Shown: positions 261 through 32,396 of the stretch, piece after piece
Position numbering within the stretch: the first letter of the stretch is position 1
Layout: each line of letters starts with the position of its first letter
Source of the DNA: a virus
DNA: 64,000 nt
Strand: one strand, 5' to 3'
Virus record (IMG/VR): IMGVR_UViG_3300037826_000038
Coordinates: 4,766 to 68,765 of that record
Made by a program: the position numbers and the translations under genes
The notes under the pieces: model-generated
Databases searched by the model: none
Told to the model about the DNA's origin: nothing
The model's input: the letters and a program-made list of their open reading frames with translations, nothing else

Positions 261-287
261 TAACCAACAGACCGGGAGGAAACAGAC

Positions 288-1949
288 ATGACCACGAACG
301 CCACGCAGCAAGCAATGGAAAAACTTGACCGCAGCATCCGGGCGCGATGTCCCGTCATCGGGATAGAGACCCCGGAGACCCGCCGTTTTATGGAGGGGTT
401 GGTGCAGGTGATCGAGAACGACAACCGACGCAATATCCGGGCGGATAACAAACGCCCCCGCCGCAAACTATTCTCCTTCTCGGTGACCCAGGGACTAACC
501 CAGGTTGCCACCTACTCCGGGGAACTTGGGTCGGAGTCCATTGTATATGACGAGCAGAGTGTGATGGAGCCGGGACCGGAACCGGACTTTTCGGTGGTCA
601 TGGCCATCGACATCATCCTGGAGCAGGGCAAAGAGAACGACGAGCCGGTGATCTATATGCTCAAAGATGTGGACGAGTATATGGAGAACCCGCTGGTTGT
701 GCGCGCCCTACGGGACCTCGCGGAGATACTCATTCGCCGTCGCCAGACCGTGATTCTGGTTAGCCCGGACCTTGGAGGGCTGCCGGAGGTGTTGAACAAG
801 GACATCAAGGTTATCAGTTGGCCCTTACCTACAAAGGACGAACTCAACCAGCAGGTAGAGTCTTTCGTCCAGAACCTAACCGACGCTGAGGTGAACCTGA
901 ACGGCACCCGGGACGAACTGATCGAAGCCCTGCGGGGTTTGACCGTGAACGAAGCCGATCAGGTGCTAGCCGAAGCGGTTATCAACCACGGGGTGCTAGA
1001 CGAACGGGCAGTCAATTTTACGATTGACGCCAAGGCCGAGATTATCCGGTCCAGCGGGGCGTTGGAGTTTTACCCGCCGTCCGTGAAGATGGGGGACGTG
1101 GGGGGGCTGGACAACCTGAAAGACTGGCTAGTTAAGGCCGGGCGGTCCCTCACTCCCCAAGCCCGACAGTTTGGGATCCAACCCGCACGCGGGGCGTTGG
1201 TGGTTGGCGTGCCGGGGTGTGGTAAGAGCCTGACCGCCAAACTGTTAGCCAGTTTGTGGGGTGTTCCCCTACTGAGGTTGGACGTGGGGGCGTTGTTTGG
1301 GAGCTTGGTAGGGAGCAGCGAAGCCCAGACCCGTCAAGCCCTCAAACTCGCCGGAGCCATCGGGCGGTGTGTGCTCTGGATTGACGAGATCGAGAAGGGG
1401 TTGAGCAGCCAGGGGGGAGAACTGGACGGAGGGACCAGCAAGCGGGTACTGGGGACGATCCTCACGTGGATGGAGGAGCAGAGCGGAGCGAGCGGGGTGT
1501 TCGTATTCGCCACTGCCAATGACATTGAGAGCTTGCGCCCGGAGTTGGTCCGCAGGTTCACCGAGGTCTTTTTCGTGGACATTCCCACACCCCAGGAACG
1601 GGAGACCATTTTCAACATACACCTTCGCAAAAGCGGACGGGACCCCCAGCAGTTTGACGTGAGCAAGCCGGTCGAACTGAGCCAAACCTTCACCGGCGCG
1701 GAGATCGAAGAGGCGGTGCAGGGGGCGTTGTGGATCGCGTTTAGTGAGGACCGGGACCTGACGAACCAGGACCTGATCGACGCCGTAAACGAGACTGTCC
1801 CCCTACTGACCACGATGGGGGAGCAGGTAGAGCGGATGCGAAAATGGGCAGCCAGGGCGCGCCCGGCAAGCCGCTACCAGCAGTCCGGTCGTCAGACCCA
1901 ACGGACCCAAGGGGGGACCGGAAGCCGGGCACAGGCGTTGGAGATGTAA
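288..1949 (+). CDS. Ycf46/SpoVK/Vps4-type AAA+ ATPase
   Basis: Walker A GVPGCGKS, Walker B LWIDEIEK, VFATAND sensor 1, VGGLDNLKDWL; degenerate N-terminal AAA domain as in Ycf46. Confidence 0.9.
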   Translation: MTTNATQQAMEKLDRSIRARCPVIGIETPETRRFMEGLVQVIENDNRRNIRADNKRPRRKLFSFSVTQGLTQVATYSGELGSESIVYDEQSVMEPGPEPDFSVVMAIDIILEQGKENDEPVIYMLKDVDEYMENPLVVRALRDLAEILIRRRQTVILVSPDLGGLPEVLNKDIKVISWPLPTKDELNQQVESFVQNLTDAEVNLNGTRDELIEALRGLTVNEADQVLAEAVINHGVLDERAVNFTIDAKAEIIRSSGALEFYPPSVKMGDVGGLDNLKDWLVKAGRSLTPQARQFGIQPARGALVVGVPGCGKSLTAKLLASLWGVPLLRLDVGALFGSLVGSSEAQTRQALKLAGAIGRCVLWIDEIEKGLSSQGGELDGGTSKRVLGTILTWMEEQSGASGVFVFATANDIESLRPELVRRFTEVFFVDIPTPQERETIFNIHLRKSGRDPQQFDVSKPVELSQTFTGAEIEEAVQGALWIAFSEDRDLTNQDLIDAVNETVPLLTTMGEQVERMRKWAARARPASRYQQSGRQTQRTQGGTGSRAQALEM

Positions 1950-2032: not shown

Positions 2033-2491
2033 ATGAGCGAGAAGGCAAAAGCACAGATTGAGGTTTGGGACCCGGAAGCCGTCCGTGAGGTTTTAGAGGA
2101 GATGGGCGTGGTATTCACCGAGGATACAACCTGGACCGGATACCGCAGCCATCAGAACCAGCCCGCGGACTTCGTGGTTAGCAAGGCCCAGGTGGGCGGG
2201 CACTATGGGGACGTGGGGTTCGAGCAGAGGGACGGCAAGCTCAACATGATCTACGACGACCTTGACGCTGGGGCCGGGCGCACCAGCAAGTTTTTGTCCG
2301 AGTTCAAGAAGCGATACAGCCTGACCGCCACCCGCCGCCTGCTGGAACGGTACGGCTACCGGATCGAGGAGCACGAGGACGGGACGTTTAGCGCCCACAG
2401 TACAATGAAGTCAGCCCAACGGATGAGCCAGCACGGGCACGGACGCAGCGCCGGACGCCAGACCCTACGCCAGCGGTTGGGGCGCGGGTAG
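2033..2491 (+). CDS. DUF1257/Ycf35-like protein
   Basis: GY..Q..ADFVV, YGDVGF, YDD pattern; directly follows a Ycf46-type ATPase, the usual context. Confidence 0.7.
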   Translation: MSEKAKAQIEVWDPEAVREVLEEMGVVFTEDTTWTGYRSHQNQPADFVVSKAQVGGHYGDVGFEQRDGKLNMIYDDLDAGAGRTSKFLSEFKKRYSLTATRRLLERYGYRIEEHEDGTFSAHSTMKSAQRMSQHGHGRSAGRQTLRQRLGRG

Positions 2492-2540
2492 GTTTAGCCT
2501 AACTCAAGTCAGCAGCACCAGACAAACCGGAGGATATACG

Positions 2541-2780
2541 ATGAAATTCAAAGCACAGACCAAACTACACCCCAACCACCGCATTGACGTGAGCCTTGAC
2601 ACCGAGGGCAACGTGGTTGCTCAGATTGAAGGTATCCAGGGCCAAGGGTGTGAGGGGATTCTGGACGTATTGGCAGAAGCCGGGATGATCACAGACCGCG
2701 AACACACCGACGACCACGACAAGCCGGAACCCCAGTATCGGGGAACCCCAACGCGCACCCACCAGAAGACCGGACATTGA
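2541..2780 (+). CDS. DUF2997-like small protein
   Basis: IDVSLDTEGNV..IEGIQGQGCE motif; third gene of the AAA-DUF1257-DUF2997 neighbourhood. Confidence 0.7.
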   Translation: MKFKAQTKLHPNHRIDVSLDTEGNVVAQIEGIQGQGCEGILDVLAEAGMITDREHTDDHDKPEPQYRGTPTRTHQKTGH

Positions 2781-2834
2781 GCAAACACAAGGGGCGGGGA
2801 CACCCGCCCCCCCTCTCGTCACACAGGAGGACGC

Positions 2835-3353
2835 ATGAGAGACCAACCATTGATTATAGCATTTGACCCCTCGACCGTGGGTGTGGGTGTAGCTGTCGGC
2901 CCCGCACGTGAGCAGGGACCGGACAAAGCATACACCTATATGCCGCCAAGGGATGCTCAGGTTGATGCCCGTATCCGAGCAATCACGGTCAAAGCCTTTG
3001 AGATCATTGAGGAGCACTTACCCGATGTGGTTGTCATTGAAGAACCTGCTGGGGATCACCACAACCGGGCCACAGACCGGAAGCTGGCACGCGCCGGACA
3101 GTCTATCGAAAGCGCGGCGACACTAGTTAGTTGGGAGACCGGTCATCCTATCCGGGTGATTCGCATCTACCCTTCCCAGGTGAAAGCTACCGGAGCGAGC
3201 AAGGATAATACTCGATATGCAGCCTCCTTAATCCAGGGGAGCGACGAGTACGACGTTTCGGGTGACTCCGCCGACGCTATTGGTGCGTGGTTGGCCGCCG
3301 ACACCCAACTCAAACAAGAACGCCTGGAGAGATGGGCGCGTGATGACCGGTAG
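2835..3353 (+). CDS. RuvC-like Holliday junction resolvase
   Basis: IIAFDPST, VVVIEEP, YPSQVKA, DSADAIG RNase H-fold acidic motifs. Confidence 0.85.
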   Translation: MRDQPLIIAFDPSTVGVGVAVGPAREQGPDKAYTYMPPRDAQVDARIRAITVKAFEIIEEHLPDVVVIEEPAGDHHNRATDRKLARAGQSIESAATLVSWETGHPIRVIRIYPSQVKATGASKDNTRYAASLIQGSDEYDVSGDSADAIGAWLAADTQLKQERLERWARDDR

Positions 3354-3684
3354 AAACGTAGATGAACTTGTTACAGACCTAATGCAATCACTCCCGGAGG
3401 GGCGCGACAACGCAGAACTGTTTGACAATGTGCAGGAGCAGATGGACGTCTCCACGAGAATGCTCAATTTCATCATCGAGCGAGCTCATGAGCGGGGTGA
3501 GCTGGTTATGGAGACCCAGTTGGACCCCTTCAGGGAGCCAGGGTTATTCAAGCCCGCCACCTTTACAGAGTTTGAGGAATGGCGCAGCAACTATGCTATC
3601 CCCCGACTGGTGAAGGAATTAGACAAACTGCAACGGATGAGTGAGCGTGCCCAGCAACTGAAAGGAGCAGATCATGCGCGTTGA
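3343..3684 (+). CDS. Hypothetical protein
   Basis: ATG 3343 overlapping the upstream gene end; coupled operon. Confidence 0.6.
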   Translation: MTGRNVDELVTDLMQSLPEGRDNAELFDNVQEQMDVSTRMLNFIIERAHERGELVMETQLDPFREPGLFKPATFTEFEEWRSNYAIPRLVKELDKLQRMSERAQQLKGADHAR

Positions 3685-4123
3685 GGTAGAGTTTGAGGGT
3701 GTGGATATTGGAGGAGAGATCGAAGACGGGTATGTGAACCACAGTGTAACCATGGTTGGAGTTGAGATCAAGCTAACCGATGACTTGTTGAATACCGGGG
3801 TCACCAAGCCGTCAGACGCGATTATGGCCGGAGCATCGGCCGCACTTACGGACTTCCTAATCACCCTCGGCAACATGGGGGCATTCAAACCCACACAGCA
3901 GGACCTGGACCAAATCGGTGGCTGCACCAACGGCGAAGATATGGTGGTCGCTGCACGCGAAGCCACCACACGCGCCATTGACGAAGCCGTTGCCAGATAT
4001 TACGACAAACTGGTGAACATGGAACTGACACCCACCGACACCCCGGATTGGAACGTGATGTTTCAGCGCCTGATCGAAAACGGGGATAACGGCAATCAAG
4101 GCTCGCCACCTACGGGTGCGTAG
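3674..4123 (+). CDS. Hypothetical protein
   Basis: AAGGAG RBS, overlaps the previous gene. Confidence 0.65.
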   Translation: MRVEVEFEGVDIGGEIEDGYVNHSVTMVGVEIKLTDDLLNTGVTKPSDAIMAGASAALTDFLITLGNMGAFKPTQQDLDQIGGCTNGEDMVVAAREATTRAIDEAVARYYDKLVNMELTPTDTPDWNVMFQRLIENGDNGNQGSPPTGA

Positions 4124-4216
4124 CCAAACGCTGTACCCCGTTAAGAGGCGGTGGGGTATGTTTACCTATGGACACGGACAAAACGCCGTAGAAAGCGTCT
4201 AGTTAGGAGAAGAACA

Positions 4217-4621
4217 ATGAAACGAAAGGACGAACAAGGTATCATCGCCCGTATGGTAAAACTATGTAGGGGGCTAGTTTTTCTGGCGCTGATCCTCACA
4301 GTCAGATACTCTCATTATTGGCCCCCGTATGGGGGGGTCAACACGTCCCGGCCCGACGCCCCACATCTGGCTCGTCTTGCCAACGGAGACCGCTGGCAGC
4401 CGTGGGGTGGACGAGGCGCGGCGTGTCCCGACTGGCTCGACCTGGGAACCCAGTTCGTCGCGTTTGGGTCAACGTGGACGTGCGTAGATCGAGGTGGGAA
4501 GGTCAAGGGGTCGTGGGTTGATTTCTTAACCCCACACGCCCATGCTGGATACGGAGACTTCATCGAGATAACCTTTATAGGTTCCCAGTTCGATTTTGAT
4601 TGTGACCATACCATGCAATAA
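4217..4621 (+). CDS. 3D-domain / RlpA-like cell-wall protein with hydrophobic N-terminal segment
   Basis: AACP..LDLGT, CVDRGGKVKG, WVDFL resemble the 3D domain; AGGAG RBS before ATG 4217. Confidence 0.6.
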   Translation: MKRKDEQGIIARMVKLCRGLVFLALILTVRYSHYWPPYGGVNTSRPDAPHLARLANGDRWQPWGGRGAACPDWLDLGTQFVAFGSTWTCVDRGGKVKGSWVDFLTPHAHAGYGDFIEITFIGSQFDFDCDHTMQ

Positions 4622-4635
4622 ACTAAGCCATAGCC

Positions 4636-4664
4636 AAGCCCCCTCAACCGAGGGGGCTTTTTTT
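4636..4664 (+). terminator. Intrinsic terminator (near-identical copy at 32891-32920)
   Basis: AAGCCCCCTC-aacc-GAGGGGGCTT-TTTTT. Confidence 0.85.
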
Positions 4665-4689
4665 GTTACCTATCTTCTACCCCAGCCCC

Positions 4690-4788
4690 GTTCTACGGTG
4701 CTGTAGGCGCACCTCTGGTGAAAATTGAGGGGAGTAGGTATAAACACCTATTAACGCAGAGAAAACGCCGTAGAGAGCGTCTAAGCCC
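4690..4788. repeat. Degenerate ~95 bp dispersed repeat (other copies ~4110-4203 and ~32940-33035)
   Basis: Shared blocks CTAC..GTAG, GGTATNNNNACCTAT, AAAACGCCGTAGARAGCGTCTA (last block degenerate in the third copy). Confidence 0.6.
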
Positions 4789-4789
4789 T

Positions 4790-4875
4790 AAACGCAAAGG
4801 AACCCCGCCAATATGACGGGGTTCCCGACCGGGAGAAAACGGGACCTGAAAGAGGAGAGATCAACCGCTTCTCGT
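4790..4875 (-). ncRNA. Predicted small RNA with anti-Shine-Dalgarno segments
   Basis: Minus-strand TTGCAA(4909-4904)-17-TATACT(4886-4881) with TG extension; terminator hairpin 4799-4825; no ORF; contains CGTTTTCTCCCGGTC. Confidence 0.55.
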
Positions 4876-4897
4876 CTACTAGTATATCACATCTCGC

Positions 4898-7800
4898 TCA
4901 CGATTGCAAGATGCTTTCCACCGCCCCCAGCACGGCTTGATTATCGTAGAGGAACCATTCGTCCCTCGCCCACCGATACAGGCATAGGGCCGCATATCCC
5001 ATCGTGTCCGCTGCCTGATACGCTGCCAGCACAACCTCACGTGCCCTCGCGTCGTCTACCCAGCCCCAGTCATATTCCTGCGTGCGCCAGAGGTGGTTGA
5101 ACTCGGTGACGACAACCGGGAGGGACCGGTAGCCACCGGGTAAGGCCTCTAGCAGGGCTTCGATGCACAGGGGATAGTTGAGGTACTGCCACGTCATCGG
5201 GTCATTGACAAACCGGGCGGTAGAGCCAACCTTCTCCGGATCCGGTCCCCGTATGTAGCCGTGAACCGGCACCAGTTCAGCCCCGTCAATCCCCGTATAC
5301 ATCTCACGCAGCCAGTCCCGAGGGTCTCCCAGTTGGGCGTTGAATGGGTCCAGCGCCCCCGGGCCCATCGGCACGTCAACGGCTGCATAAACGGAGTTGT
5401 AGGCCGCAATCCAGTTCTGTACCGTCAACCGGGTATCTTTGGGGTGTTCACGCACGTTATTGATTTCATTGCATAACGTGTATCCCGCAACTCCCCGGCT
5501 GTCTTTGATGGTCTGAATGCATGCCTGGATAAAGCGCACGTATTCATCAGAGCCAAACGCCGGCATCGTCCCCCCACCGCCGAGGTCGCTGCTCCACGAG
5601 TACCGCAGGTTCACGTAAATGTCTATCCCCGCGTCTGCGTACTGGGTGAAGTCGAACGGTCGAGCGTCTCCCCCCAGGAAGACCGGCATTGCAATGGCGC
5701 GGGGTCCCGGATAGTCAAGCAACCACTGGGCGGCAAGAATATCCCGGTTGCTCCCGTCTACGACCATATCATTGAAGCCAATCGCCGGAGCCGAGGGAGG
5801 AGGCGGTGGGGGCTCCTCAACGGTCCGATATTCAGCCAAGGCATAGATGGCTTGGGCCAGCGTCTTGCCAGGACCGTAGGCTTGGAGCAGTTTGCGTCGT
5901 GTCCCCGTCCACGGATCCATCACCAGTATATCCGAACCGTCGTCAACTATTTGTAACCCTAACACAAAATGGCTGTCCAGAGGATCGCCCGGATAGAAGT
6001 CGACTTGCATGATTGCAGGACCGTTCGCCAGCACGCGCCGCACCGTGCCCATATCGGCGACCTGTCCCGGATCGCGCCATGTGTGGTACTGCACAAACTC
6101 CAATTCGTCTACCAGTTCTGCACCCTTGGCCCAGACAAACAATGCGCCGTCCACGAATCCCCCACTAGCGGTCATCTGGCGATTGACCTCTCCCGGTGTC
6201 AGGTCCGGGTCATACGGACTTGCCAGGGACGCAAAGGCCGTGACTACGCACCCGGCTTTGCCTAGGATCAAGGCTGACGTCCCCAACCGATCATCGGCCC
6301 ACCTCTCGTCCCGTTGGGAGTGATTGACAATCTCCGGGTATCCGGGGTCCGGTTCGGTGTCGGCAAACACCAGTACGGTATCCGGGTCGCGGTTCTCAAC
6401 CCACGCCCGGTAGCGGGGACGGTTTTCTTCAGGCATCGGCCCGGCGTCAACCGTATTGGTACGCCACTCAGGGGGACGGTTCACTTGGACGGCATCGTGC
6501 CAGGAGTTGGTCACCGTCCGGGTTTCCTCAAATCCCCGCATATACGCTGTCATTCGCTGTGTGTCACTCATGTAGGTGGGGTCTGCCATAATCACGTAGC
6601 GGTCATACTGGTTGGGTTCAGGTTCCGGGTCGGGTTGGTAGGAGGCTGCTTCAATCACCAGTTCACGCCACACCCCAGTAAGCCCGGCACGTTTGAGATC
6701 AAACCCTGCCCACGCACCCCCTAGGCTCCCCCACCCGAACACCTGCATCGACCGGATATAAGGAGACTTCCCTATCTGGTTGAGATACCAACGCATTTGC
6801 GCGCCCCAGTTCTCAGGCGTCATCGTGCGTAGGTCTCTGGCTACGTTGACCTCGGTGAGATCGACCAGCGGCATGTGCTTTGCTCCACCCACGGCATCTT
6901 CCCACCAGCGGAACCGGCACGCGAGGGGTCCCCGGTCTGGGTGAGCTTCGCGTCCGGGGATGGGGCTGCCAAAATCCTTGTCCAAGGGATTGGCGTATTC
7001 GTGCAGCGCCAGGGCGTGCCCCCGTGCCTTCATCTCGGCGAGGATTCCGGTTTCAGCTACCGCTAACATTTCCGTCCACTCCGGCACGCCCAGGGAGTAC
7101 GAGAACAGGCTGGTCAGGTAGCCGTTGGCGTCCGCAATGTCCATACAGTGGAACATAAACTCGGCCAGACGCCGATGTCCGTCTGCACCCGGTGGGTCCT
7201 GCTCGTTGATGATCTCCCATACGTCCACGTATTCCCGGTGAGGGTCCCACGCCCGCATTGACGCATCCATCACCCGTTCGGCCTCGCGGCGTAGGTCCCC
7301 GTCCAGGTTGGGGCCCTCTACGTTGACGTCATTGGGGATACCCCGGTGCAGGCGCCCGATGGTCAGTATGTCACGCCCAGCCTCAGCAGCTAGCGTTTTG
7401 AACAGTTCGAGGGTTCCCATCACCGGAGGGTCTCCGTAAGCTTTCACGGAAGGGAGCGGGGCATCGGCAGGTAACTCACCGGCCAGGGACCGGTATTCGT
7501 CACTGGCTCCATCGTCCCCGGTATTCAGGTGTAATCCCGGCATCACCATGCGCTGGTTAGGAGTGGGAGGCGGTTCCGGGTCGTCGGTTACCCGCTCTAG
7601 CAGCATTGCGTCCCAGTAGACATCGCAGTGTTTGAACGGCCATAACACCTGTGACCGCAGAAACACCGTCACGGTCTCCGACAATGCCTCGGCGGTGACG
7701 CCGGGGACTTGTCCGTAGGTGTTGTAGATATGCCCAGTCTCTCCCCACACGACACTATCTCCCCACGGATCGGTCCGTCCCGTGGGGTCGATCCCCACCT

Positions 7801-8209
7801 GGACGCCGATGTTTTGCACCCCATCCCCATCTAGGTTAGAGGTGTAGGGGTTGTCGTCTAAACTGCTCCAAGCATGCGCCCAGCCCCCAGCCCGGTAGAG
7901 GTCTCCCTTGTCCACAGAAACCTGCTGATACAGTCCGGCGTCGTGGATGCGAAAGAAGGTAAAGAGCTTGAACGCTTTATAGTCCAAATGGATTCGGGGA
8001 GGGTCCAGGTACGGCGGTTCGTGGTTAATGACGTGCATCTCCGGGCGTGCGTAGCCTTTGTCATTCGTGGGGTCGTGAGGGACAGGCAACCCTTCTTTCC
8101 ACCACGCCACCCAGCCTTCAGGTACGAAGATCTCCCCAAACTCCTGCCCTGTGAAAGTGTCTCGTGTCCAACCGCCTTCAAAGCCGGGATTGGTCAGTAG
8201 GTTTTGCAT
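4898..8209 (-). CDS. Large multidomain lysin/cell-envelope hydrolase (CBM-like + glycoside-hydrolase-like barrel + C39-like peptidase + second GH-like barrel)
   Basis: NLLTNPGFE start; INE/TE acid pairs twice; SQRDERW..GC..HFVL..DP C39 pattern; Pro-rich linkers; last gene of the late arm. Confidence 0.7.
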   Translation of the reverse strand: MQNLLTNPGFEGGWTRDTFTGQEFGEIFVPEGWVAWWKEGLPVPHDPTNDKGYARPEMHVINHEPPYLDPPRIHLDYKAFKLFTFFRIHDAGLYQQVSVDKGDLYRAGGWAHAWSSLDDNPYTSNLDGDGVQNIGVQVGIDPTGRTDPWGDSVVWGETGHIYNTYGQVPGVTAEALSETVTVFLRSQVLWPFKHCDVYWDAMLLERVTDDPEPPPTPNQRMVMPGLHLNTGDDGASDEYRSLAGELPADAPLPSVKAYGDPPVMGTLELFKTLAAEAGRDILTIGRLHRGIPNDVNVEGPNLDGDLRREAERVMDASMRAWDPHREYVDVWEIINEQDPPGADGHRRLAEFMFHCMDIADANGYLTSLFSYSLGVPEWTEMLAVAETGILAEMKARGHALALHEYANPLDKDFGSPIPGREAHPDRGPLACRFRWWEDAVGGAKHMPLVDLTEVNVARDLRTMTPENWGAQMRWYLNQIGKSPYIRSMQVFGWGSLGGAWAGFDLKRAGLTGVWRELVIEAASYQPDPEPEPNQYDRYVIMADPTYMSDTQRMTAYMRGFEETRTVTNSWHDAVQVNRPPEWRTNTVDAGPMPEENRPRYRAWVENRDPDTVLVFADTEPDPGYPEIVNHSQRDERWADDRLGTSALILGKAGCVVTAFASLASPYDPDLTPGEVNRQMTASGGFVDGALFVWAKGAELVDELEFVQYHTWRDPGQVADMGTVRRVLANGPAIMQVDFYPGDPLDSHFVLGLQIVDDGSDILVMDPWTGTRRKLLQAYGPGKTLAQAIYALAEYRTVEEPPPPPPSAPAIGFNDMVVDGSNRDILAAQWLLDYPGPRAIAMPVFLGGDARPFDFTQYADAGIDIYVNLRYSWSSDLGGGGTMPAFGSDEYVRFIQACIQTIKDSRGVAGYTLCNEINNVREHPKDTRLTVQNWIAAYNSVYAAVDVPMGPGALDPFNAQLGDPRDWLREMYTGIDGAELVPVHGYIRGPDPEKVGSTARFVNDPMTWQYLNYPLCIEALLEALPGGYRSLPVVVTEFNHLWRTQEYDWGWVDDARAREVVLAAYQAADTMGYAALCLYRWARDEWFLYDNQAVLGAVESILQS

Positions 8210-8230
8210 TGTTTCTCCTTTTGTTGTGGT

Positions 8231-9472
8231 TTATGCCAACTCGCGCCATTGTAATGACGCATAGACCTCCGGCGAACCATCAATAAGCACCGCAACTAGT
8301 ACCAACTGATCCACGGTGCCGTCAATTTCTGATCCTAATCGTATTGCGTTTTGTAGTTCTGCACTGACGATATTCGTCATCTGGTTAGTGCCCGCTATAT
8401 ATCCGCTGGCAACAACGTATCCATCCGTCGTTACCGTTTCCCCACCACCTACCGCTGATTGTAAGCCCGAGTTATCAACGTTGGAGTATGATAACGCAGC
8501 CGACAGGGTGGGGTTGTACTGTAATTCCCACAACGCAACAGCATTAGCGGTTTGTAGGATATTAAGCGTTTCCAGATCAACAGATAGACCTAGATGAGTG
8601 CTTCGCAACTGAATTGCTAAAATAACTTCTTTGGTTGCCCCAACCGTGATGCCGGTGGTTTCATTATTCACACTATGAAGAGCACCATTTTTCTCCTGAC
8701 CGCCCTCGGAGATGACGCTTGAGCAGATCTTAATCAGGTCTGCGGCTACACCAGTTCCATCATTGACAATCTCGGTGCGGAGAGGTAAATTGGGCGTGCT
8801 CATATATACGTTAGCCAAACTGTTCGCGTTTAGGAACTCATGGGCGTAGTAGATCATTCCATCAACCACAAACCCCATCCGCACACGCCCGACACCCAGC
8901 CATTCAAAATCAATCACCAAAATCTGCGTCTTGGTGAAATCGAGTGTAATTCCAGAATCCCCGCTCCCGTCCATTGTGTCCAAGTTCCAACTGGATTGGG
9001 CTACTCGGTTATCTACCGCAGATCCGGTGACATACGTGCGGCGAACGAAACCATAGTTGCTTCCGTTATCTTCCAGAAATAGGCCATTGTCACCGTCAAA
9101 TAATCCTTCTCGCTTGGTGATACCGCTGTCTTGCGATCCCATGACGAAGGTCAGGAAAACCAACTGGCTTTTCCCAGGCTGATAGTTAAATCGCATTTTG
9201 GTTTGTCGCACTCGCATTCCCGCCGTGGTTGCCCCAACCGAAAGCGTTGTGGATGCCGTGTCGTTATCATACGCCGTAGACGTTCCTGACCCGCTAGTCT
9301 CTTGGTTGTCATAGAGGAGCGGATATTGTTCAGCGCTGTCGGCAATGTCTCCGTCGTCAAAGATTTGCTTTGAATCGAAAATTGTGACGGGGTTGGACAC
9401 ACGCCACCGCGCAAATGCATCAATGCTTGGTGAATCGTCAGCTTTTACATTCACGTTGCGTAGTTCGGTCAT
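8231..9472 (-). CDS. Beta-rich virion/structural protein
   Basis: DAFARWRVSNPVTIFDS, RQTKMRFNYQPGKS, DFEWLGVGRVRMGF: a family common in phage tail regions. Confidence 0.6.
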   Translation of the reverse strand: MTELRNVNVKADDSPSIDAFARWRVSNPVTIFDSKQIFDDGDIADSAEQYPLLYDNQETSGSGTSTAYDNDTASTTLSVGATTAGMRVRQTKMRFNYQPGKSQLVFLTFVMGSQDSGITKREGLFDGDNGLFLEDNGSNYGFVRRTYVTGSAVDNRVAQSSWNLDTMDGSGDSGITLDFTKTQILVIDFEWLGVGRVRMGFVVDGMIYYAHEFLNANSLANVYMSTPNLPLRTEIVNDGTGVAADLIKICSSVISEGGQEKNGALHSVNNETTGITVGATKEVILAIQLRSTHLGLSVDLETLNILQTANAVALWELQYNPTLSAALSYSNVDNSGLQSAVGGGETVTTDGYVVASGYIAGTNQMTNIVSAELQNAIRLGSEIDGTVDQLVLVAVLIDGSPEVYASLQWRELA

Positions 9473-10174
9473 TTAGAATATGCTCCATTCTGTCGAGGTT
9501 GCCACAACCTCAACCGATTCATCCTCGATCAGGTCAAAGGTCGCGTCACCGTCGATGGTCTCAGCGCCATTGCCATCCAGTGTCACCGTGCCGCTCCCCA
9601 CGTTTTTGACTTTGTACGACCCGTCCACGTTCGCTAGTTCTGGTAAATTGATGGTTATGTCTCCGCTGCCGGTATCGGCTACAATGTGGATCGTGCCATT
9701 AGTTTCCGCAGGCGTGTAGGGAGAATCGGTGTCGTCGATTTCGACGACAGACAGGGTGAGGTTTTCGGTTAGTAGAAGCGCCAAAAGCTGCGCTTGCGTC
9801 CAGTGATACAGCGGAGAGCCGTCATAGATGTCCTTGGCGTGGCGCTCGCCGTAGTTCTCCACATCCCACGCGCCCTGCGGTCCCCAGGCAGGCGTCACGT
9901 TCTCCGGCGCACCGTTCTCGTGCCTTCCGTTTCTCGCCACGCCCTCCGAGCTCCAGTCGGTGTAGAGGACACTGACCTCCATCATAATCTGCGAGGCACG
10001 CACCTCGTTATCGTCGCGTTCGGCGCTGACCTCGATGACCTCCTGAGTCGAGCGCACCTCAGCGTCATCAGCCTGTGCGCTGACCTCGATGACCTCCTGA
10101 GTCGAGCGCACCTCAGCGTCATCAGCCTGTGCACTGACCTCTATTATTTCCTGCGTTGAGCGAACCTCTCCCAT
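9473..10174 (-). CDS. Tail-fibre-associated protein with N-terminal 18-aa repeats
   Basis: EVRSTQEVIEVSAQADDA x3-4; C-terminal TINLP..KNVGSGTVTLDGNGAETIDG module. Confidence 0.6.
   Translation of the reverse strand: MGEVRSTQEIIEVSAQADDAEVRSTQEVIEVSAQADDAEVRSTQEVIEVSAERDDNEVRASQIMMEVSVLYTDWSSEGVARNGRHENGAPENVTPAWGPQGAWDVENYGERHAKDIYDGSPLYHWTQAQLLALLLTENLTLSVVEIDDTDSPYTPAETNGTIHIVADTGSGDITINLPELANVDGSYKVKNVGSGTVTLDGNGAETIDGDATFDLIEDESVEVVATSTEWSIF
9975..10168 (-). repeat. 54-bp tandem repeat (~3.5 units)
   Basis: Near-identical gctgacctcgatgacctcctgagtcgagcgcacctcagcgtcatcagcctgtgc units. Confidence 0.85.
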
Positions 10175-10182
10175 AATACCCC

Positions 10183-11160
10183 TTACGGTATATTGGACTC
10201 GATGCCGATCAGCGCCGCATTAATTGCGGCCTGATTTGCCCACGCGGCTGCGGTATCGGGATCATTCTCGAGCAGCATCTGAAAATAGCCCTGGTACGTA
10301 GTGTATAAATTCTCGAAACTGCCCGTTTGCTCAGTGCCATTTGAGCTAAGTACCAATCGCATCTGATCTCCGTTCGCTACCGTCTTTCGGCCCCGCGCCC
10401 AGACCGTCACCCAGAATGGGGTCGTGTAATCTGACAGATCGACCCCGCCATGTCCGTAGAGGTCCTTCTGGGCATCGGTCGAGGTGCTAACGTAGGAGGT
10501 ATCACCATCGGGACCGAGTTCATCGACGTCTGCATAGTTGCTGCCCCCACCCGACGCGGTAAACTGTGCGGTATTGTCTGAGGTGGGTACCGCGCCCACA
10601 ACACGGCGGTCATATAATCGCGAGCTATCAAAGTGAATATCGTCAACATAATGCACAGATCCGCCCGTTTTGTAAATACGAATGTACTCAATATCGTCTG
10701 AGGTTCCGGGCTGCGTATCCCCAGTGTAATCAATGTCCGCCACGCCCTCAATCCACGATTGTAGCCGTCCGCCTGCATTTGCGCTGCTCAAGCGGAATTC
10801 CAAATGTTTCCACACGTTAATCGGAAATAAAACTGTGCCATCCGCAACTTTCGTGCTGTCAACGTAGGCGTCAAATTGGTAAGCGCCGTTCATCCGGAAG
10901 TCGATATCCTCGCCGCTGCTTAAATGGAATCGAACTCGGAACTCAGAAAAATCACTGCTGTAGTGCCACAACGATACGTAGACATCCGTTTCTGTCGTGG
11001 CTAAATACCATGATATACCCCCCAGGGCCCAACTGTACGAGCCGGTATGCACCGTCCCGGTATTGACTGCTCCTCCACTCTGTTGAGCATCCGGCACAAG
11101 GTCAATTGACCCCATCTCGAATCCACAGGCAAACGGCAACGCTACAGCTCCTATTGTCAT
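10183..11160 (-). CDS. Virion protein with LamG/concanavalin-like domain
   Basis: GFEMG start, WKHLEFR, YVDDIHF; C-terminal DPDTAAAW..AAINA motif. Confidence 0.55.
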   Translation of the reverse strand: MTIGAVALPFACGFEMGSIDLVPDAQQSGGAVNTGTVHTGSYSWALGGISWYLATTETDVYVSLWHYSSDFSEFRVRFHLSSGEDIDFRMNGAYQFDAYVDSTKVADGTVLFPINVWKHLEFRLSSANAGGRLQSWIEGVADIDYTGDTQPGTSDDIEYIRIYKTGGSVHYVDDIHFDSSRLYDRRVVGAVPTSDNTAQFTASGGGSNYADVDELGPDGDTSYVSTSTDAQKDLYGHGGVDLSDYTTPFWVTVWARGRKTVANGDQMRLVLSSNGTEQTGSFENLYTTYQGYFQMLLENDPDTAAAWANQAAINAALIGIESNIP

Positions 11161-11408
11161 AATTTACCTCCGCGTATCAAGGGTGGTTCTGGTTTGCCGA
11201 TAGGCCCCATCCAATGAGTGGTCGTGTCGACGCTGATCATCGGTTCATTTTGGGTCATGTGAGGGTTTGGGAGCCACGGGTTCCCTTCCGGGTCTATCGC
11301 CACCTCAACGCACGTGATGATATACGAGGCGCTCGGGTATCGAAAACCGTCAAGCGTTCGCACCCAATAAAATCCTGGTTTGGTCGGTTTTTCAGTAGTC
11401 CATTTCAT
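11157..11408 (-). CDS. Small hypothetical phage protein
   Basis: MKWTTEKPTKPGFYW..THWMGPI..P; GAGGTG RBS. Confidence 0.65.
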   Translation of the reverse strand: MKWTTEKPTKPGFYWVRTLDGFRYPSASYIITCVEVAIDPEGNPWLPNPHMTQNEPMISVDTTTHWMGPIGKPEPPLIRGGKL

Positions 11409-11419
11409 GTGTCACCTCG

Positions 11420-12517
11420 CTATGTTCCTGTATAAATGTGGATGTCCCCGGATAACCAGTAATCATTCAAATCGTATCCGGCGTCCTGGAGCTTGAGATC
11501 GTATCCAGTTCCTGCCCCGGCGTTTATCACCTCGACCTTGCAGTGATGGAGGTGCCCGACGCCGACAGCCTTTCGAGGGAAGATCACCCCGTACTCATTG
11601 TCGGCGGTGTTAAGCGAGCGGTGGACGTAGGCGTTGACCAAATACGACCCCGCTGATAGTGTGATCTCGCCGGTTAACTCGCACTCAATCATATTCATCC
11701 CTGCCACCGTCACCGAGGTCGGGACGGTGTGATCCCCGCTGTACGTCCCCGGCGGCAGCAGGATCGTGTCGCCGGAGGTCGCGGCGGTGATGGCACTGGC
11801 TAGGTCCGCGTACTCTCCTGTCACGCTGGACCCATCGTGGACAAGCACGGTATCCATCAGCGTGTCCAGCGTGTACGCCCCGTCTGCCCCGCCGTCCGTC
11901 GCGCCCAGCCAGTAGCCAGGATTGAACAACCGCTCGGCGCTCAGATCGCCATCCAGCGCCAGCGTCAGGTATTGCGCGTCATCAGGTGCGTAGGACCCAG
12001 GCAAGTCCGCCTCAACCAGTGCGCGGAAACTGGGTTTCTGTCCATCAACAGCGGTGTCAGACATAAAGGCTAGGTTTTTGTTTTGGGTGTCTAAATCAAT
12101 TTCGCCCCCAGTGAACCCCAACAGGTTTGCCAAAAGATCGGCGGCAAGTGCTACTGCCAGTGTATAATCACCGTTCGCGCCTCCATCTGTGCCGGTGAGA
12201 CCGTCACCGGCCTGAAACCGGCGCTCTCCGGTCAGGGTCGCGTTAAACGCCAGTGTCAGATACTGTGCTGAAACCGGAGCCCCACTAGCCCCGGACCCCC
12301 CGCCCAATAACTGCCAGTCGGTGCCCGAGGGGTTGGAGATACAGACATACAGATCAAAGTTAGCCGTATCCCAGCAAAGCGTCCCAGCTTGTGCTTCCAG
12401 GTTGGTATCGGGGTTCCCGGCATACGTGACCAGCGGAGGGACCTGAGTTGCCAATACCCCCCGCATCCGCTCGGCCAGGCTATTGATTTGCCTCTGTAAA
12501 TCATTAGAGCTAGTCAT
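11420..12517 (-). CDS. Tail fibre/spike protein
   Basis: N-terminal coiled coil, duplicated AQYLTLA..ER..TDGGA unit, start of a beta-helix (AITAATSGDTILLPPGTY). Confidence 0.65.
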   Translation of the reverse strand: MTSSNDLQRQINSLAERMRGVLATQVPPLVTYAGNPDTNLEAQAGTLCWDTANFDLYVCISNPSGTDWQLLGGGSGASGAPVSAQYLTLAFNATLTGERRFQAGDGLTGTDGGANGDYTLAVALAADLLANLLGFTGGEIDLDTQNKNLAFMSDTAVDGQKPSFRALVEADLPGSYAPDDAQYLTLALDGDLSAERLFNPGYWLGATDGGADGAYTLDTLMDTVLVHDGSSVTGEYADLASAITAATSGDTILLPPGTYSGDHTVPTSVTVAGMNMIECELTGEITLSAGSYLVNAYVHRSLNTADNEYGVIFPRKAVGVGHLHHCKVEVINAGAGTGYDLKLQDAGYDLNDYWLSGDIHIYTGT

Positions 12518-15084: not shown

Positions 15085-16305
15085 TTATGCTGACGCATAG
15101 ACATTCCTCCACTTGAGCGTGATGGCACTGGTTCCGGCTTCTCCCTGTCCCAAAGTCGCGGTCACTAGATTAGACCGGTCTGCGTTACGGTCAGGGGACA
15201 AAATAAAATTGGCGATGTCCCCTGAAACATACGAATAAAGATCGTTTCCGCCGCTGTCCTCGGCGGTGATGTCGCGGGTATCTATGGTCACGGTCTCCCC
15301 GCTGCCTATGGTATAGTTCATTGAGATCGACACGTCAAGCGTGTCGTTGGTGATAACCGGATCCGTTGCGGGGCCTGTAATCTCAATCGTGGGATAGGCG
15401 GGGTGTGTCCCCCAGTAGACGACCTCAACCTGATCACTGAGGTACGCATCCGCGAAGAGCCAGCGCCCGGTGCCCGGCGTGGTTCCAAAATACGCACCGG
15501 CGTTACCTGCCGTTGCCGGAGTGCCGAAGTCAAATACCAAATCATCGAACGTGTCAGGCAGCGTCCACGATTGGGACTGCTCGGGCCCGTACCAGAAGGG
15601 GTCGTTACCCACGAACCTGAGAGCCTCTCTATACCCTGTTAGCCCGTCATCCTCGCGGTTGTGGGACGGCCCTAACTCAAGGATACAGTACAGGTCTCTA
15701 ATCGCGTTTCCGCGCCTGTACGACCACTGTACGCCGGTCTCTGCTGTGGACATATTCGAGTCCAGCCGCACCGTATAGTCATTGACGACTTCCGTCACTT
15801 CATAGGTTCCATCGTCGGCGGTGCTCCCGGCTATGGTCAGAAACCCGCCCAGGGTGATGGCCCGGTCCACGAACCGGGCGGTGTCACTGACAACCAGATC
15901 ACTCCCGTTGGTCAATTCCAGGTCCATTCCCTGCGCCTGTTTGCCTCCGGGGAGGCGCTGGCGGTAGATAAGCGTGTCCGGTTCGTCGTCGGGGGCAAAG
16001 GTGCGCGAGGGACGGAGCAGGTCTACAATGCGGTTCTGGCGGTCTGTTAAGTCGATCATACCGGCTAGCTGCTCCTCCACCACCACCTGCAACACCCGGT
16101 CTCCATACCGATAGTCAAGGGGTGTGGACCCATGCTGGAACGGTCCCGACTGGGAGATAATCCGAATGGGGGGCATCCCGAAATTGCTTGCGCTCGCCAG
16201 GATGCTCCGGTTCATCCCCAGGAGCACCAGCAGGGGATAGGTGCGATACGTCCCGGCAACGGGAACTAGGATGCTATGACTGCCTCGTAGGGTTGCACCT
16301 AGCAC
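15085..16305 (-). CDS. Distal tail protein (Dit-like) with internal insertion
   Basis: Immediately after tape measure; DPFWYG, YPTIEITGPATDPVI, TVTIDT motifs. Confidence 0.8.
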   Translation of the reverse strand: MLGATLRGSHSILVPVAGTYRTYPLLVLLGMNRSILASASNFGMPPIRIISQSGPFQHGSTPLDYRYGDRVLQVVVEEQLAGMIDLTDRQNRIVDLLRPSRTFAPDDEPDTLIYRQRLPGGKQAQGMDLELTNGSDLVVSDTARFVDRAITLGGFLTIAGSTADDGTYEVTEVVNDYTVRLDSNMSTAETGVQWSYRRGNAIRDLYCILELGPSHNREDDGLTGYREALRFVGNDPFWYGPEQSQSWTLPDTFDDLVFDFGTPATAGNAGAYFGTTPGTGRWLFADAYLSDQVEVVYWGTHPAYPTIEITGPATDPVITNDTLDVSISMNYTIGSGETVTIDTRDITAEDSGGNDLYSYVSGDIANFILSPDRNADRSNLVTATLGQGEAGTSAITLKWRNVYASA

Positions 16306-19007
16306 TAGATCCTCCCCATGGACATGACCTCAAACTCTGCCTCTAACCCGCCCGGTCTGACAATGCTCTGGGTCGTTAAATTGTACTGCGGGGCATACGT
16401 GGTATTGCTCTCCCGGACAACCTGTGACATATTCGTGACCGGAGCCATCGCCCGCGCCATGGCCCGTTGGACCAGCGGCGCCATATCGAGCACGCCCAGC
16501 GCCACACCTTCGGGAATAGTCCGTCCGACTTCCTTTCGGGCGCGGGTACTGGGTGAGTTGGCTCCCAAGAATCCCTTGGCAGCGTCAAGTCCTGCCTTTG
16601 CTGCACTGACCGCCGCGTTAGCCAATTTTGATACCGCCCCTGTCACGCCCTTGGCGATCCCCTCAATGATGCTTCTGCCAATGGCTCCCCAGTCTGTGTC
16701 CGTGAACTTTTCTTTTATGGTCGTAATGATAGAGCCAATTGACCGGATGAACACCTTACCTATATTGACAATGAACCGCCCCATCGCTTCCCAGTTGCGC
16801 CTCCAAATATCTCTGAGTTTTGAGCCAAACGTCTCCCAGTCACCCTCAAGCGCCGCCGCAAAAGCGTCCACAACATCGGTGATGTTGGCTAGTACGGTCT
16901 GAATGAAGTTCTGGATCATCTCCCACGCCGTCTGCGCGTTTTGGAGAATGGCTTGTCCGTGTGCGTCCCAAAATGCTTGGATGAAGTCAAGAGCCGCTTG
17001 TACCTTAGCGATAATTCTGTTAGCGAGGGCGGTCACGGCATTGACGATTCCGTTCCACGCAGACCGAGCGATGGTCAAAATGCTTGCACCGTGAGCGTCC
17101 CACCAGCCCCGGATCGTTGCCAAGGCGGTCTGGATAAACGTTTTAACCGCCGTGAACACTGTCATCACCACAGTTTTGACCGTCTGCCAGACCATAGTCG
17201 CTTTGGCTAAAATCGCCTCGTTGTTCTCGGCCCACCACGCCCTGACGGTCTGGATGGCGTTGGAAATGAAGGTAGCTACGCTCGCCACGATGTCCCGGAT
17301 GCCCAGGAAATTCGTCTCCCAAGCTTGTCGAGCTAGGGCTACAACGGCAATCACCGCAGCAACCGGAGCCAGGAGAGACACGACGGTACTCACCAACGTC
17401 GCGATAGCCGGGATGATTGCAGCAGCCAGTACCGCCCCCAGGCCAATCAATACGTCCTGTAAACTGAGGTTCTCCGTGAGCCACTGGGTCACCTGCGCGA
17501 TAATGGGTTGGATGATGTCATACAGTTCCCACAGTCTCATAATCGTGGCTTCGGGGAGCAGGTTGTCCAGGACCTCCATCAACACCGCAAAGGGACCCTC
17601 CCCCTGCTGTAATACCTGAAACCCGGTGCTTAACCCCATCCACAGGTCCTCAAAGAACCCGATGACTTGGGGGAGCGCGCCTTCGGCTAGAGTGAGCAGG
17701 TTGTCAATCAAGGGACGGATTCCCTCGGCTAGCTGCCCTACGGCGGCTATCACCATCGGACCGTACTCCTCAGCCATCCCACTGAGCCAGTCGATCACGT
17801 CCCCGGCAATGGGAAGCAGTTTGTCTCCCAGGGAGATGAGCAGCGTTTCAATGGTCCCCTCGAACGCCTCCATCTTCCCCGCCAGGGTGTCGGCTTTCCG
17901 GGCCGCCTGCTCCTGCATCGTCGCGGCGCTGGCGGTTGCGTCCTCCATCTCCGTCCACCCCTCGGTTCCGACTTCGAGCATGGTGTCCATAGCCCGGAGA
18001 CCTTGGCTGGTGAAAATGGCACCCAGCGCAGCGTCACGTTCGGCGGCGGTTGCGTCCCCCAGTTTGTCCTCAAACTGCTCGATGATTCCCACCATGGGAA
18101 GCATCTCCCCCGTAGAAGCATCTCGGACCGCAATACCCAGGTCGTCCAGCGCCTCAGACGCTTTCGGGGTCAGGTCCCGCAGGGAGTTAATCATTGAGTT
18201 GAGGCTGGTCCCCGCCATGGATCCTTGGATACCCCGTGTGCTCAAAATGGCGATGGCGTTGTTGACTTCCTCAATGCCGAACCCCGCGCCCCCCGCAGCC
18301 GGACCGACCATCTTGAGCGCCTCAGCCATCCCACTGACCTCAGCCACCGACGCATCGGCAGCCATGATCATGTTGTTGAGAGCGTCATTGACAAATTGGG
18401 CGCGTTCCTCCGGGGTCTCCATAGACGCACCGAAGGTGGACAGGGCAACCGAGGCGAGGTCTGACGCTTGCACCATATCCAACTCACTGGCAGCGGCAAG
18501 GTCAATCGAAGACCGCAGCGCCCCGCCCAGTTCGGCCCCTTCTTCCATGTACCCATTCATATCCCCGAAAATCTCGGTTGTGGTCAGACCGCTCTTGTAA
18601 AGCCCGGTGAGAGCTTCAGCGGCACCAGACGCCGACACACCCAGCAGCCGGGTATCCCCACCCACCGCCAGGGCCGAGGCTTTCAACTGCTCGAAGGTCA
18701 GGTCCGTCGCGCTTGCCGCGATCTCCAGGTCTGCCATCGACGAGTCAAAGTCCGTCGCCATGGCCATACCTTGCTTGCCCACGTCAATCATCGACGTACC
18801 CAACCGGCCCAGGGTACGGGTCGCGGTCTGAACGCCACTGGCAAAGATGTTACCCAGGCCCGTAGCCAGGGTCTGGGTCAGGAACGATCCGGTACGGTTG
18901 GTCGTCTGGTAGACCTGCTCCACCGACGCATCGGCCCGGCGCATCGTGCTCTGGAACTGCGCCCAGCCTTGGACGACAAACTCCGCACCTAACTGCTCGA
19001 AGGCCAT
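16305..19007 (-). CDS. Tail tape measure protein (TP901-like core)
   Basis: 900 aa, Ala-rich, GIQGSMAGTSL, Trp-periodic amphipathic repeats, LGANSPS end motif. Confidence 0.95.
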   Translation of the reverse strand: MAFEQLGAEFVVQGWAQFQSTMRRADASVEQVYQTTNRTGSFLTQTLATGLGNIFASGVQTATRTLGRLGTSMIDVGKQGMAMATDFDSSMADLEIAASATDLTFEQLKASALAVGGDTRLLGVSASGAAEALTGLYKSGLTTTEIFGDMNGYMEEGAELGGALRSSIDLAAASELDMVQASDLASVALSTFGASMETPEERAQFVNDALNNMIMAADASVAEVSGMAEALKMVGPAAGGAGFGIEEVNNAIAILSTRGIQGSMAGTSLNSMINSLRDLTPKASEALDDLGIAVRDASTGEMLPMVGIIEQFEDKLGDATAAERDAALGAIFTSQGLRAMDTMLEVGTEGWTEMEDATASAATMQEQAARKADTLAGKMEAFEGTIETLLISLGDKLLPIAGDVIDWLSGMAEEYGPMVIAAVGQLAEGIRPLIDNLLTLAEGALPQVIGFFEDLWMGLSTGFQVLQQGEGPFAVLMEVLDNLLPEATIMRLWELYDIIQPIIAQVTQWLTENLSLQDVLIGLGAVLAAAIIPAIATLVSTVVSLLAPVAAVIAVVALARQAWETNFLGIRDIVASVATFISNAIQTVRAWWAENNEAILAKATMVWQTVKTVVMTVFTAVKTFIQTALATIRGWWDAHGASILTIARSAWNGIVNAVTALANRIIAKVQAALDFIQAFWDAHGQAILQNAQTAWEMIQNFIQTVLANITDVVDAFAAALEGDWETFGSKLRDIWRRNWEAMGRFIVNIGKVFIRSIGSIITTIKEKFTDTDWGAIGRSIIEGIAKGVTGAVSKLANAAVSAAKAGLDAAKGFLGANSPSTRARKEVGRTIPEGVALGVLDMAPLVQRAMARAMAPVTNMSQVVRESNTTYAPQYNLTTQSIVRPGGLEAEFEVMSMGRI

Positions 19008-26952: not shown

Positions 26953-27286
26953 GGTTCCCCTCCATGAACTCCTGTAAAAGACACTGACCTCCAGCGATTG
27001 CCAACCACGCCAGAGGAACCGTAAGCCACTCCCCCCACAACGCCATACCCGCCGTCACGGCGGCGAACCACACCCCGCAGCAATACGGACATTCCGCACC
27101 CTGCGCCAAAGTGTTCCAGATTTTGTGAGCCGTTTGTTTCCTGCTTTTTATGGACCTAATGCTTTGATCGACCAACCAATGCCTGATCTTGCCAAACACA
27201 TTGAACGGACCGGCCTCAAACGCCAGGAGTTGAGCCAGCCTGTACGTCGCCAGGACCGCCAGCACTAGCCGAATCTCAATGTGCAT
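26939..27286 (-). CDS. DUF1360-family membrane protein
   Basis: LATYRLAQLL..GPF, CPYCCGVW. Confidence 0.8.
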   Translation of the reverse strand: MHIEIRLVLAVLATYRLAQLLAFEAGPFNVFGKIRHWLVDQSIRSIKSRKQTAHKIWNTLAQGAECPYCCGVWFAAVTAGMALWGEWLTVPLAWLAIAGGQCLLQEFMEGNRGRE

Positions 27287-32280: not shown

Positions 32281-32295
32281 CGGCTACCTCCCTAA

Positions 32296-32394: not shown

Positions 32395-32396
32395 GG

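Follow-up and report, generated by a model that had tools for sequence, protein, structure and literature searches.

Introduction

The usual explanation for the timing of phage gene expression invokes proteins, whether sigma factors, antiterminators or polymerase modifiers and replacements. Phage small RNAs (sRNAs) are now mapped in numbers and, to our knowledge, almost none of them comes with a target. In enterobacteria, DapZ and MicL are sRNAs derived from 3' untranslated regions (3'UTRs), each with its own promoter inside the upstream coding region and with a terminator shared with the mRNA. Here we describe a candidate of comparable layout in a phage: the minus strand at 4910–4789 of a 64,000-nucleotide (nt) stretch (hereafter "the window," whose positions are used throughout) that comprises bases 4766–68765 of the 68,765-bp IMG/VR virus record IMGVR_UViG_3300037826_000038, rated complete by CheckV. 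This segment would constitute a small transcription unit, non-coding and lying inside the 3' end of the late tail operon. Like DapZ and MicL, the candidate has a promoter overlapping the end of a coding region, a short non-coding RNA, the terminator of the parent operon and a proposed pairing with ribosome-binding sites (RBSs). It differs from them in being phage-encoded, in having the phage's own early and middle leaders as proposed targets and in a seed that adjoins the terminator and is partly structured.

Several phage RNAs invite comparison. The C4 antisense RNA of the immI region of phages P1 and P7 is about 80 nt long, pairs over the RBS of phage genes and blocks their translation; it is processed from the transcript of its own targets and acts in the prophage immunity of temperate phages. 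Our candidate is likewise a phage RNA of about 80 nt proposed to pair with RBSs of its own phage, away from its own gene, but its unit is separate, its proposed targets are many, dispersed and united by one signature, and it has no sequence relationship to C4. In phage lambda, the PR'-tR' 6S RNA and the oop RNA arise where a constitutive sigma-70 promoter is closely followed by an intrinsic terminator, which yields a short RNA. A similar arrangement of promoter and nearby intrinsic terminator stands at the head of a late operon in the present genome (promoter P32393, below), although the record holds no homologue of the lambda Q protein (PF06530); and whereas oop is cis-antisense to cII, the complementarity of our candidate is in trans. 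DicF (of the Qin prophage) and RsaE/RoxS carry pyrimidine-rich or C-rich single-stranded tracts that mask the Shine-Dalgarno (SD) sequences of host mRNAs. The second anti-SD tract of the candidate lies in a hairpin loop, as in the C-rich-loop RNAs RsaE/RoxS, but its proposed targets are phage mRNAs, and neither homology to these RNAs nor an Rfam match was found. In virulent Pseudomonas phages, ONT-cappable-seq has defined the start sites of antisense RNAs and of non-coding RNA candidates derived from 5' and 3'UTRs (PMC10914365). Those candidates are transcript-mapped and carry no assigned targets, whereas ours is known from sequence alone and comes with a specific target hypothesis; they show that such units exist in virulent phages.

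We propose, at a probability of roughly 0.4, that the unit encodes a late-expressed, 3'UTR-type anti-RBS sRNA masking the common leader and RBS of the early and middle operons. Its promoter, P4909, would fire about 48 nt upstream of the late-operon terminator to give an RNA of about 80 nt, and the same sequence would also be carried as the 3'UTR of the late mRNA. The CGUUUUCUCCCGGUC tract of this RNA, which matches the leader/RBS signature ACCGGGAGG(A/G)AAC of early (sigma-70 consensus) and middle (GGTTTATGTATGTAAACC-type) first genes, would base-pair across the RBS and block binding of the 30S subunit, so that translation of the early and middle operons would be turned down once the late-class promoters are active.

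A Predicted sRNA Unit at the End of the Late Operon

The unit lies in the convergent intergenic region 4622–4897, where the plus-strand early and middle genes meet the minus-strand late operon. The final gene of this late/tail operon is a 1103-amino-acid open reading frame (ORF; 4898–8209, minus strand, TGA stop at 4898–4900), and its end is overlapped, just as the initial annotation had described, by a minus-strand promoter with an extended -10 element. This promoter, P4909 (4881–4910), comprises C-TTGCAA (hexamer at 4909–4904), a 17-nt spacer and TATACT (4886–4881) with TG at 4889–4888, i.e., the -35-like hexamer, 17-nt spacer, TG and TAnnnT of a sigma-70 extended -10 promoter. Its -10 region reads TGATATACT, its -35 is formed by the last Leu-Gln codons (last but one and last but two) of the 1103-amino-acid gene, and the stop codon of that gene falls within the spacer.

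By generic criteria P4909 is ordinary: 3 kb of sequence hold 3 promoter-like sites against 1.5 expected, and the genome contains 59 sigma-70-like sites at 9 of 12 positions or better, seven of them with TG. Two paralogous minus-strand promoters occupy positions where promoters of the minus operons are expected. P41890 (41862–41891; CTTGCGA...TGATATACT) stands in the divergent region at the head of minus operon 1, its -35 hexamer starting 87 nt ahead of the ATG of gene 41803, the first on the minus strand, and P32393 (32366–32395; CTTGCGT...TGCTAAACT) stands upstream of minus operon 2, the first gene of which starts at 32280. The motif TGNTAWACT occurs three times in 68.8 kb, in each case on the minus strand, in non-coding sequence and with CTTGC upstream (TTGC at 17-nt spacing), and these sites are the heads of minus operons 1 (41891) and 2 (32395) plus P4909. 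When the pattern CTTGCG-N15-TGNTAWACT was built from P41890 and P32393 alone, P4909 was its sole additional match in the genome, at up to one and at up to two mismatches, with agreement at 13 of the 14 specified positions; 60 simulated genomes gave no match at up to one mismatch and a mean of 0.6 at up to two. Being the only further match to a pattern derived from two other promoters argues that P4909, as judged from its sequence, genuinely belongs to the family of minus-strand promoters of the phage and is no chance match. This class (weak -35 TTGC, extended -10 TGnTAwACT) is probably read by host sigma-70.

The resemblance between P4909 and P32393 extends to what follows the promoter. The P32393 leader contains a terminator-like hairpin with a T-run (32294–32334, minus strand) that, read from the sequence, directly precedes the RBS of a 567-amino-acid gene; it lies about 25 nt past the predicted start and reproduces the promoter/short RNA/terminator layout seen at 4910–4789. 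A hairpin and T-run in front of the RBS of the first gene implies control of about 27 kb of late genes by attenuation or antitermination.

Downstream of P4909, the minus-strand hairpin that the initial annotation had pointed out is present at 4826–4798 with a T-rich tract after it. This late-operon terminator (4789–4826, minus strand) has the features of an intrinsic (Rho-independent) terminator: a 13-pair stem (8 G-C pairs) with a 3-nt loop, followed on the minus strand by TTTGCGTTT, the hairpin itself leading into UUUGCGUUU. It begins 72 nt past the stop codon, is terminator-like on the minus strand only and has an interrupted U-tract; those 72 nt are at least a 3'UTR. The convergent plus-strand operon has an intrinsic terminator of its own (4636–4666, plus strand; hairpin 4636–4659, 10-pair stem and T7), which shows no T-run when read in minus orientation; the late operon is therefore expected to terminate at the 4826–4798 hairpin, which it has in common with the predicted RNA.

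Judged by sequence, a promoter and a terminator stand on one unit that overlaps the 3' end of the upstream coding region, the layout of a 3'UTR-derived sRNA with its own promoter. Because P4909 belongs to the family, an independent RNA of about 80 nt becomes likely, and we infer with good confidence that a transcript running from about 4875 to about 4790 is made from it. Placed by the position of the -10 element, the start would fall at about 4875–4873, and the predicted body (4827–4875, minus strand) is pyrimidine-rich. It contains two tracts complementary to RBSs: the seed 5'-CGUUUUCUCCCGGUC-3' (complement of 4827–4841), directly 5' of the terminator stem, and, as had also been reported, a second anti-SD tract, CUCUCCUCUUUC (complement of 4848–4859), in the apical loop of a 5' stem-loop. 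This second tract is open (unpaired probability about 0.9, opening energy 2.4–3.7 kcal/mol).

A translated minus-strand peptide was considered for this unit and dropped, as the only frame, read by eye, starts at TTG, has about 27 codons and runs through the terminator. Identity with a known RNA family was dropped as well: the whole window gave no Rfam match at gathering thresholds, and 4600–4960 gave only sub-threshold, terminator-like matches. The earlier proposal of an RNA unit of about 80 nt between promoter and terminator accordingly remains plausible, lacking a credible ORF and strengthened by the three-member promoter family.

Complementarity to Early and Middle Ribosome-Binding Sites

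The leader/RBS signature ACCGGGAGG(A/G)AAC is found at 12 promoter-proximal family sites, all on the plus strand, and in most early and presumed middle transcription units the first gene bears ACCGGGAGG, the genes of the sigma factor and the AAA ATPase included. The string ACCGGGAG is enriched, with 15 copies in the window where 3.54 would be expected, a count matched by none of 100 shuffles. Six copies lie 5–9 nt before an ATG, among which we found the four genes named initially (42084, 49446, 56754, and 62777); the others are in coding sequence, except for the copy at 4828, within the complement of the candidate seed.

Also borne out are the two longest pairings proposed at the outset, each of 14 contiguous pairs with one G-U: with the sigma leader and RBS (ACCGGGAGGAAACG, 61748–61761, plus strand), directly before the ATG of the gene for a 176-amino-acid sigma-factor-like protein (61762–62292, plus strand), and with the leader and RBS of the AAA ATPase gene (GACCGGGAGGAAAC, 270–283, plus strand), before its ATG at 288 (gene 288–1949, plus strand). 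The leader before gene 62777 (62762–62776, plus strand) offers 10 contiguous pairs, as does that of 42084, while those of 49446 and 56754 offer 9 each and two leaders outside the window 9 and 10. Overall, pairing of at least 9 nt with the UCUCCCGGU core is available at 8 of the 12 promoter-proximal leader sites. The second tract forms a 13-nt run with the RBS of the gene at 59578.

Contiguous matches of this length are rare by two measures. In dinucleotide shuffles of the 49-nt RNA body, a run of at least 14 with at most one G-U arose in 4 of 400 (p about 0.01). Across 137,530 nt, both strands counted, such 14-nt runs form 22 clusters, which by-eye sorting divided into 12 that are antisense to other family members or artefacts of a false ORF, the candidate itself and 9 unrelated ones, i.e., about 0.006 unrelated clusters per 87 nt. 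When accessibility was taken into account, the best interaction scored -12.9 kcal/mol (second tract against gene 59578) and the sigma leader -11.0; among random genomic 84-mers, 3.6% did as well as the best score. The helix between seed and RBS is part of every heterodimer predicted with the sigma, AAA ATPase, 62777, and 42084 leaders, at free-energy gains (ddG) of -14 to -20 kcal/mol. For the first three of these leaders the gains were -19 to -20 kcal/mol (p = 0.075–0.09 each), and the sum over the four targets was ahead of 95.5% of shuffles (p = 0.045).

Promoter Modules and Genome Context

The RBS signature belongs to promoter-leader modules of two kinds. The first consists of a terminator hairpin, a T-run, the palindromic GGTTTATGTATGTAAACC(ATA), a short ACAC-rich leader, a strong RBS and an ATG, with a conserved hairpin-loop motif, GTTAAACG, recognized by eye. 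Ten such sites were counted, all on the plus strand, of which two fall in the 4.7 kb that the window leaves out; GGTTTATGTATGTAAACC-type modules stand at window positions 242, 1989, 42425, 48817, 50434, 56719, and 62739 and at genome positions 845 and 2536 (outside the window). These are probably middle promoters, each joined to the terminator of the unit before it and read with the phage's 176-amino-acid sigma factor. Modules of the second kind carry a near-consensus sigma-70 promoter: five plus-strand sites in the 42–62 kb region (42015, 42734, 49375, 58003, and 61691) agree at 11–12 of 12 positions and have a 17-nt spacer. Three of them (42015, 49375, and 61691) are followed by ACCGGGAGG leaders, with the sigma gene after 61691, and two (42015 and 49375) share tandem TATAAT boxes and leaders of almost the same sequence. 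Read from their sequence, these promoters are the early class, and one of them (61691) would drive the sigma-factor gene.

Plus-strand genes extend from about 42.0 kb rightward to the end and resume at the left end as far as 4621. Among their products are a DnaB-like helicase, another helicase, a RuvC-like resolvase, the AAA ATPase and the sigma-factor-like protein, and the last of these genes (134 amino acids, plus strand) starts at 4217, with the operon ending at 4621. The minus-strand block of about 37 kb extends from 41803 down to 4898 with a single interruption at 32281–33037 and carries a weak terminase-like match, tail-region genes and a tape-measure gene (16305–19007, minus strand) that lies upstream of the 1103-amino-acid gene in the late/tail operon. 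The G+C content of the window is 57%, and the sequencing runs that contain the phage are tidal-flat metagenomes.

The 1103-amino-acid gene is an orphan that, by position, closes the tail module. Its product returned no Pfam, PHROG, or PDB sequence match and only weak language-model leads to GH5- and GH53-like glycoside hydrolases at 0.76–0.79, where such a score counts as more than a lead only from 0.9. The label "lysin" initially attached to it therefore finds no support, and the product could be a tail fibre or depolymerase. Upstream on the minus strand, at 8231–9472, is a gene for a 413-amino-acid virion structural protein (phrog_1645), with relatives of 35–37% identity in T4-like cyanophages and Puniceispirillum phage HMO-2011 and of 40–56% identity on 54 IMG/VR loci that have essentially no other gene in common with the phage; it is a widely exchanged single gene. 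A 611-amino-acid protein encoded inside the structural block (27276–29111, minus strand) matches GtrB-like glycosyltransferase families (phrog_841, E = 6e-17), which is unusual amid head and tail genes.

The absence of a visible CI-like repressor or integrase, noted at the outset, extends to the whole record: neither a tyrosine integrase nor a CI-type HTH_3 protein scored above threshold, in a search that did not take in serine recombinases. In this the phage differs from the temperate phages that encode C4, and its gene content looks virulent. The suggestion in the initial annotation of a "lysis/latency or superinfection switch" consequently has no basis, and a lysogeny switch was dropped as a candidate function; any role of the RNA would be temporal, separating late from early and middle expression.

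Repeats at the Junction and Comparison With Relatives

Two repeated elements mark the junction. A 47-nt element occurs in two plus-strand copies that are 79% identical (4155–4201, just upstream of the RBS of gene 4217, and 4737–4783), which as a direct repeat enclose the last plus-strand gene with its terminator, much as borders enclose an inserted gene cassette. The second copy is part of a longer element, about 150 nt comprising a terminator and the region downstream of it (4636–4790), which recurs at 32891–33040 with 78% column identity. This longer element contains GGTATAAAYACCTAT and GTCTAAGCC and thus stands at each of the genome's two convergent junctions.

No close relative of the phage was found in the collections searched. 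DNA of 4300–5300 had no match among 50,697 phage records, the 1103-amino-acid protein no relative in viral or metagenome contigs, and the 134-amino-acid product of the last plus-strand gene none in viral contigs. Contigs of four DNA runs were compared at 4000–6000, and in the three runs other than the likely source none covers or bridges 4722–4869. The GGTTTATGTATGTAAACC middle-promoter motif yielded no matching family in IMG/VR viral contigs (one stray match) and 71 loci in metagenome contigs, with which, by blastn, the genome has just the motif itself in common; one of these loci (L122) had a weak 26% protein match. Because the 54 loci with the 413-amino-acid virion protein share essentially that gene alone, they are mosaic and useless for synteny. 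Among 27 loci matched by the AAA ATPase, only one (L134, record G001, 54 kb) also has structural-gene homologues on the opposite strand and hence a convergent junction. It is distant (45% identity in the AAA ATPase), and both its middle-promoter motif and its RBS signature differ from those of the phage. At 2200–11650 it has a repeated promoter-leader module of its own, TTTTTCTGTTCTGTACACAGGG...AAGTCAAGCGGAGGTC-ATG, so that the design of one signature per promoter-proximal gene is common to both although the sequences differ.

Discussion

For the trans-acting antisense function envisaged in the initial annotation, the outcome is divided: the complementarity to a common RBS signature is real, while the energy scores do not stand clearly above those of shuffled sequences (p 0.05–0.14). 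A number of observations weigh against the proposal that the RNA masks these RBSs. The possibility that the seed is buried in stable structure, raised as a ground for rejection, is realized in part, in that the second tract is open but minimum-energy and centroid folds alike engage the 5' half of the seed (CGUUUUCUC) with the 5' end of the RNA (unpaired probability 0–0.2), and opening the seed costs 5.9–10 kcal/mol depending on context; the predicted net binding is favourable all the same. This self-pairing accounts for the weakness of the energy-based measures: against composition-matched shuffles the accessibility-aware score has p = 0.136 for the best target and 0.128 for the top five, and the cofold gains for single targets are marginal (p = 0.075–0.26). 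Scores at the level of shuffles indicate that much of the anti-RBS potential stems from pyrimidine richness alone. With unlimited G-U pairs, 14-nt runs to some RBS are common (374 of 137,530 positions, both strands), and RNAduplex without accessibility ranks the sigma site only 8th, a ranking that we set aside as a poor measure for its long spurious helices (null mean best -40.6 kcal/mol). The RBS windows came from a crude ORF caller that included some false ORFs and missed the true starts 42084 and 56754. Transcription of the late operon through P4909 could occlude the promoter. Moreover, repeated regulatory pieces form a patchwork between the convergent operons, in which a short copy of an RBS motif, or even of a promoter, could be recombination debris; should recombination bring in such fragments, an incidental match would be likelier than the null models allow. 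The convergent junction of L134, finally, has a single bidirectional terminator and no counterpart of the unit, and its own RBS signature gave 3 forward-strand matches at up to two mismatches (2 exact) and none on the opposite strand of the 54-kb record. This result argues against an ancient conserved mechanism and says little about the phage studied here.

These points lend themselves to a plainer account, in which the locus is an ordinary 3'UTR and terminator at a mosaic junction and the promoter copy, RBS-like block and repeats are leftovers of recombination among regulatory modules of the phage, any short RNA made having no function in trans. The hairpin occupies the very place at which the late operon requires a terminator, the plus-strand one having no T-run in minus orientation; a repeat of the region upstream of gene 4217 and the element shared with the other convergent junction lie alongside; and the 1103-amino-acid gene is an orphan in two collections, as expected at the boundary of a recently exchanged module. 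Energy scores no better than same-composition shuffles, the half-buried seed and the lack of a counterpart in the syntenic relative fit this account as well. Yet P4909 keeps 13 of 14 family positions and ought to be active if the other two promoters are, a contiguous 14-nt match seldom arises under either null model, and the resemblance to the RBS family ends sharply at the edges of a 14–15-nt block, unlike the remnant of a duplicated module. We consider a 3'UTR devoid of further function somewhat unlikely, though it is the main rival. A separate account, in which GACCGGGAGAAAACG at 4827–4841 is a relic plus-strand RBS of a lost gene or of the dubious 4813–5100 ORF region and its complement is incidental, is very improbable in our judgment. 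The block does lie on the same strand as all 12 family members, about 44 nt from an upstream copy of the gene 4217 upstream region; GGAGA in place of GGAGG weakens its SD sequence, and no ATG, GTG, or TTG follows at ribosome-binding distance (a small plus-strand gene after GGGAG was dropped on this ground, and the 4813–5100 ORF, by eye antisense to the tail gene with a Pro/Arg-rich product, was dropped as a gene). It lacks, however, the promoter, ACAC leader, and start codon found with every real family member, lies downstream of the plus-operon terminator and resembles the family over 15 nt only.

The likeness of P4909 to P32393 raises a different prospect, that P4909 and the terminator at 4826 form a module like PR'-tR' of lambda, an antitermination checkpoint whose short RNA is a by-product and whose read-through, once antitermination is on, is antisense to the end of the plus operon or has no role. 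P4909 has both the promoter class and the layout of P32393, where the strong hairpin and T-run before the first late-gene RBS imply that late expression needs read-through, and a minus-strand read-through transcript from P4909 would be 79% complementary over 47 nt to the gene 4217 leader. Against this, the record contains no Q-type antiterminator (PF06530; the search was confined to this type), no minus-strand gene lies downstream for read-through to serve and the 14-nt RBS match is left unexplained. We hold such a checkpoint to be improbable. What the sequence establishes for the anti-RBS sRNA is its elements, the family membership of the promoter, the terminator, the complementarity and the statistics of that complementarity; that the RNA is made, where it begins and ends, when it appears and what it does to translation are inferences.

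As parallels to the candidate we see 3'UTR-derived sRNAs with internal promoters, the P1 C4 RNA and the non-coding RNA candidates of virulent Pseudomonas phages. We hold only tentatively, and with some doubt, that a probably virulent, uncultured phage may encode at the 3' end of its late operon a trans riboregulator that shuts down the early and middle regulon, its own sigma factor included. If this is true, the phage would have an RNA-based switch from early to late expression in which one sRNA acts on a regulon of phage operons, and the target set would be readable from the genome as a leader/RBS signature on promoter-proximal genes, among them the gene for the phage sigma factor. Even if the function in trans fails, the promoters of this orphan 68.8-kb phage fall cleanly into three classes, with consensus sigma-70 early promoters, terminator-coupled palindromic middle promoters and extended -10 late-strand promoters, one of which has a leader terminator.

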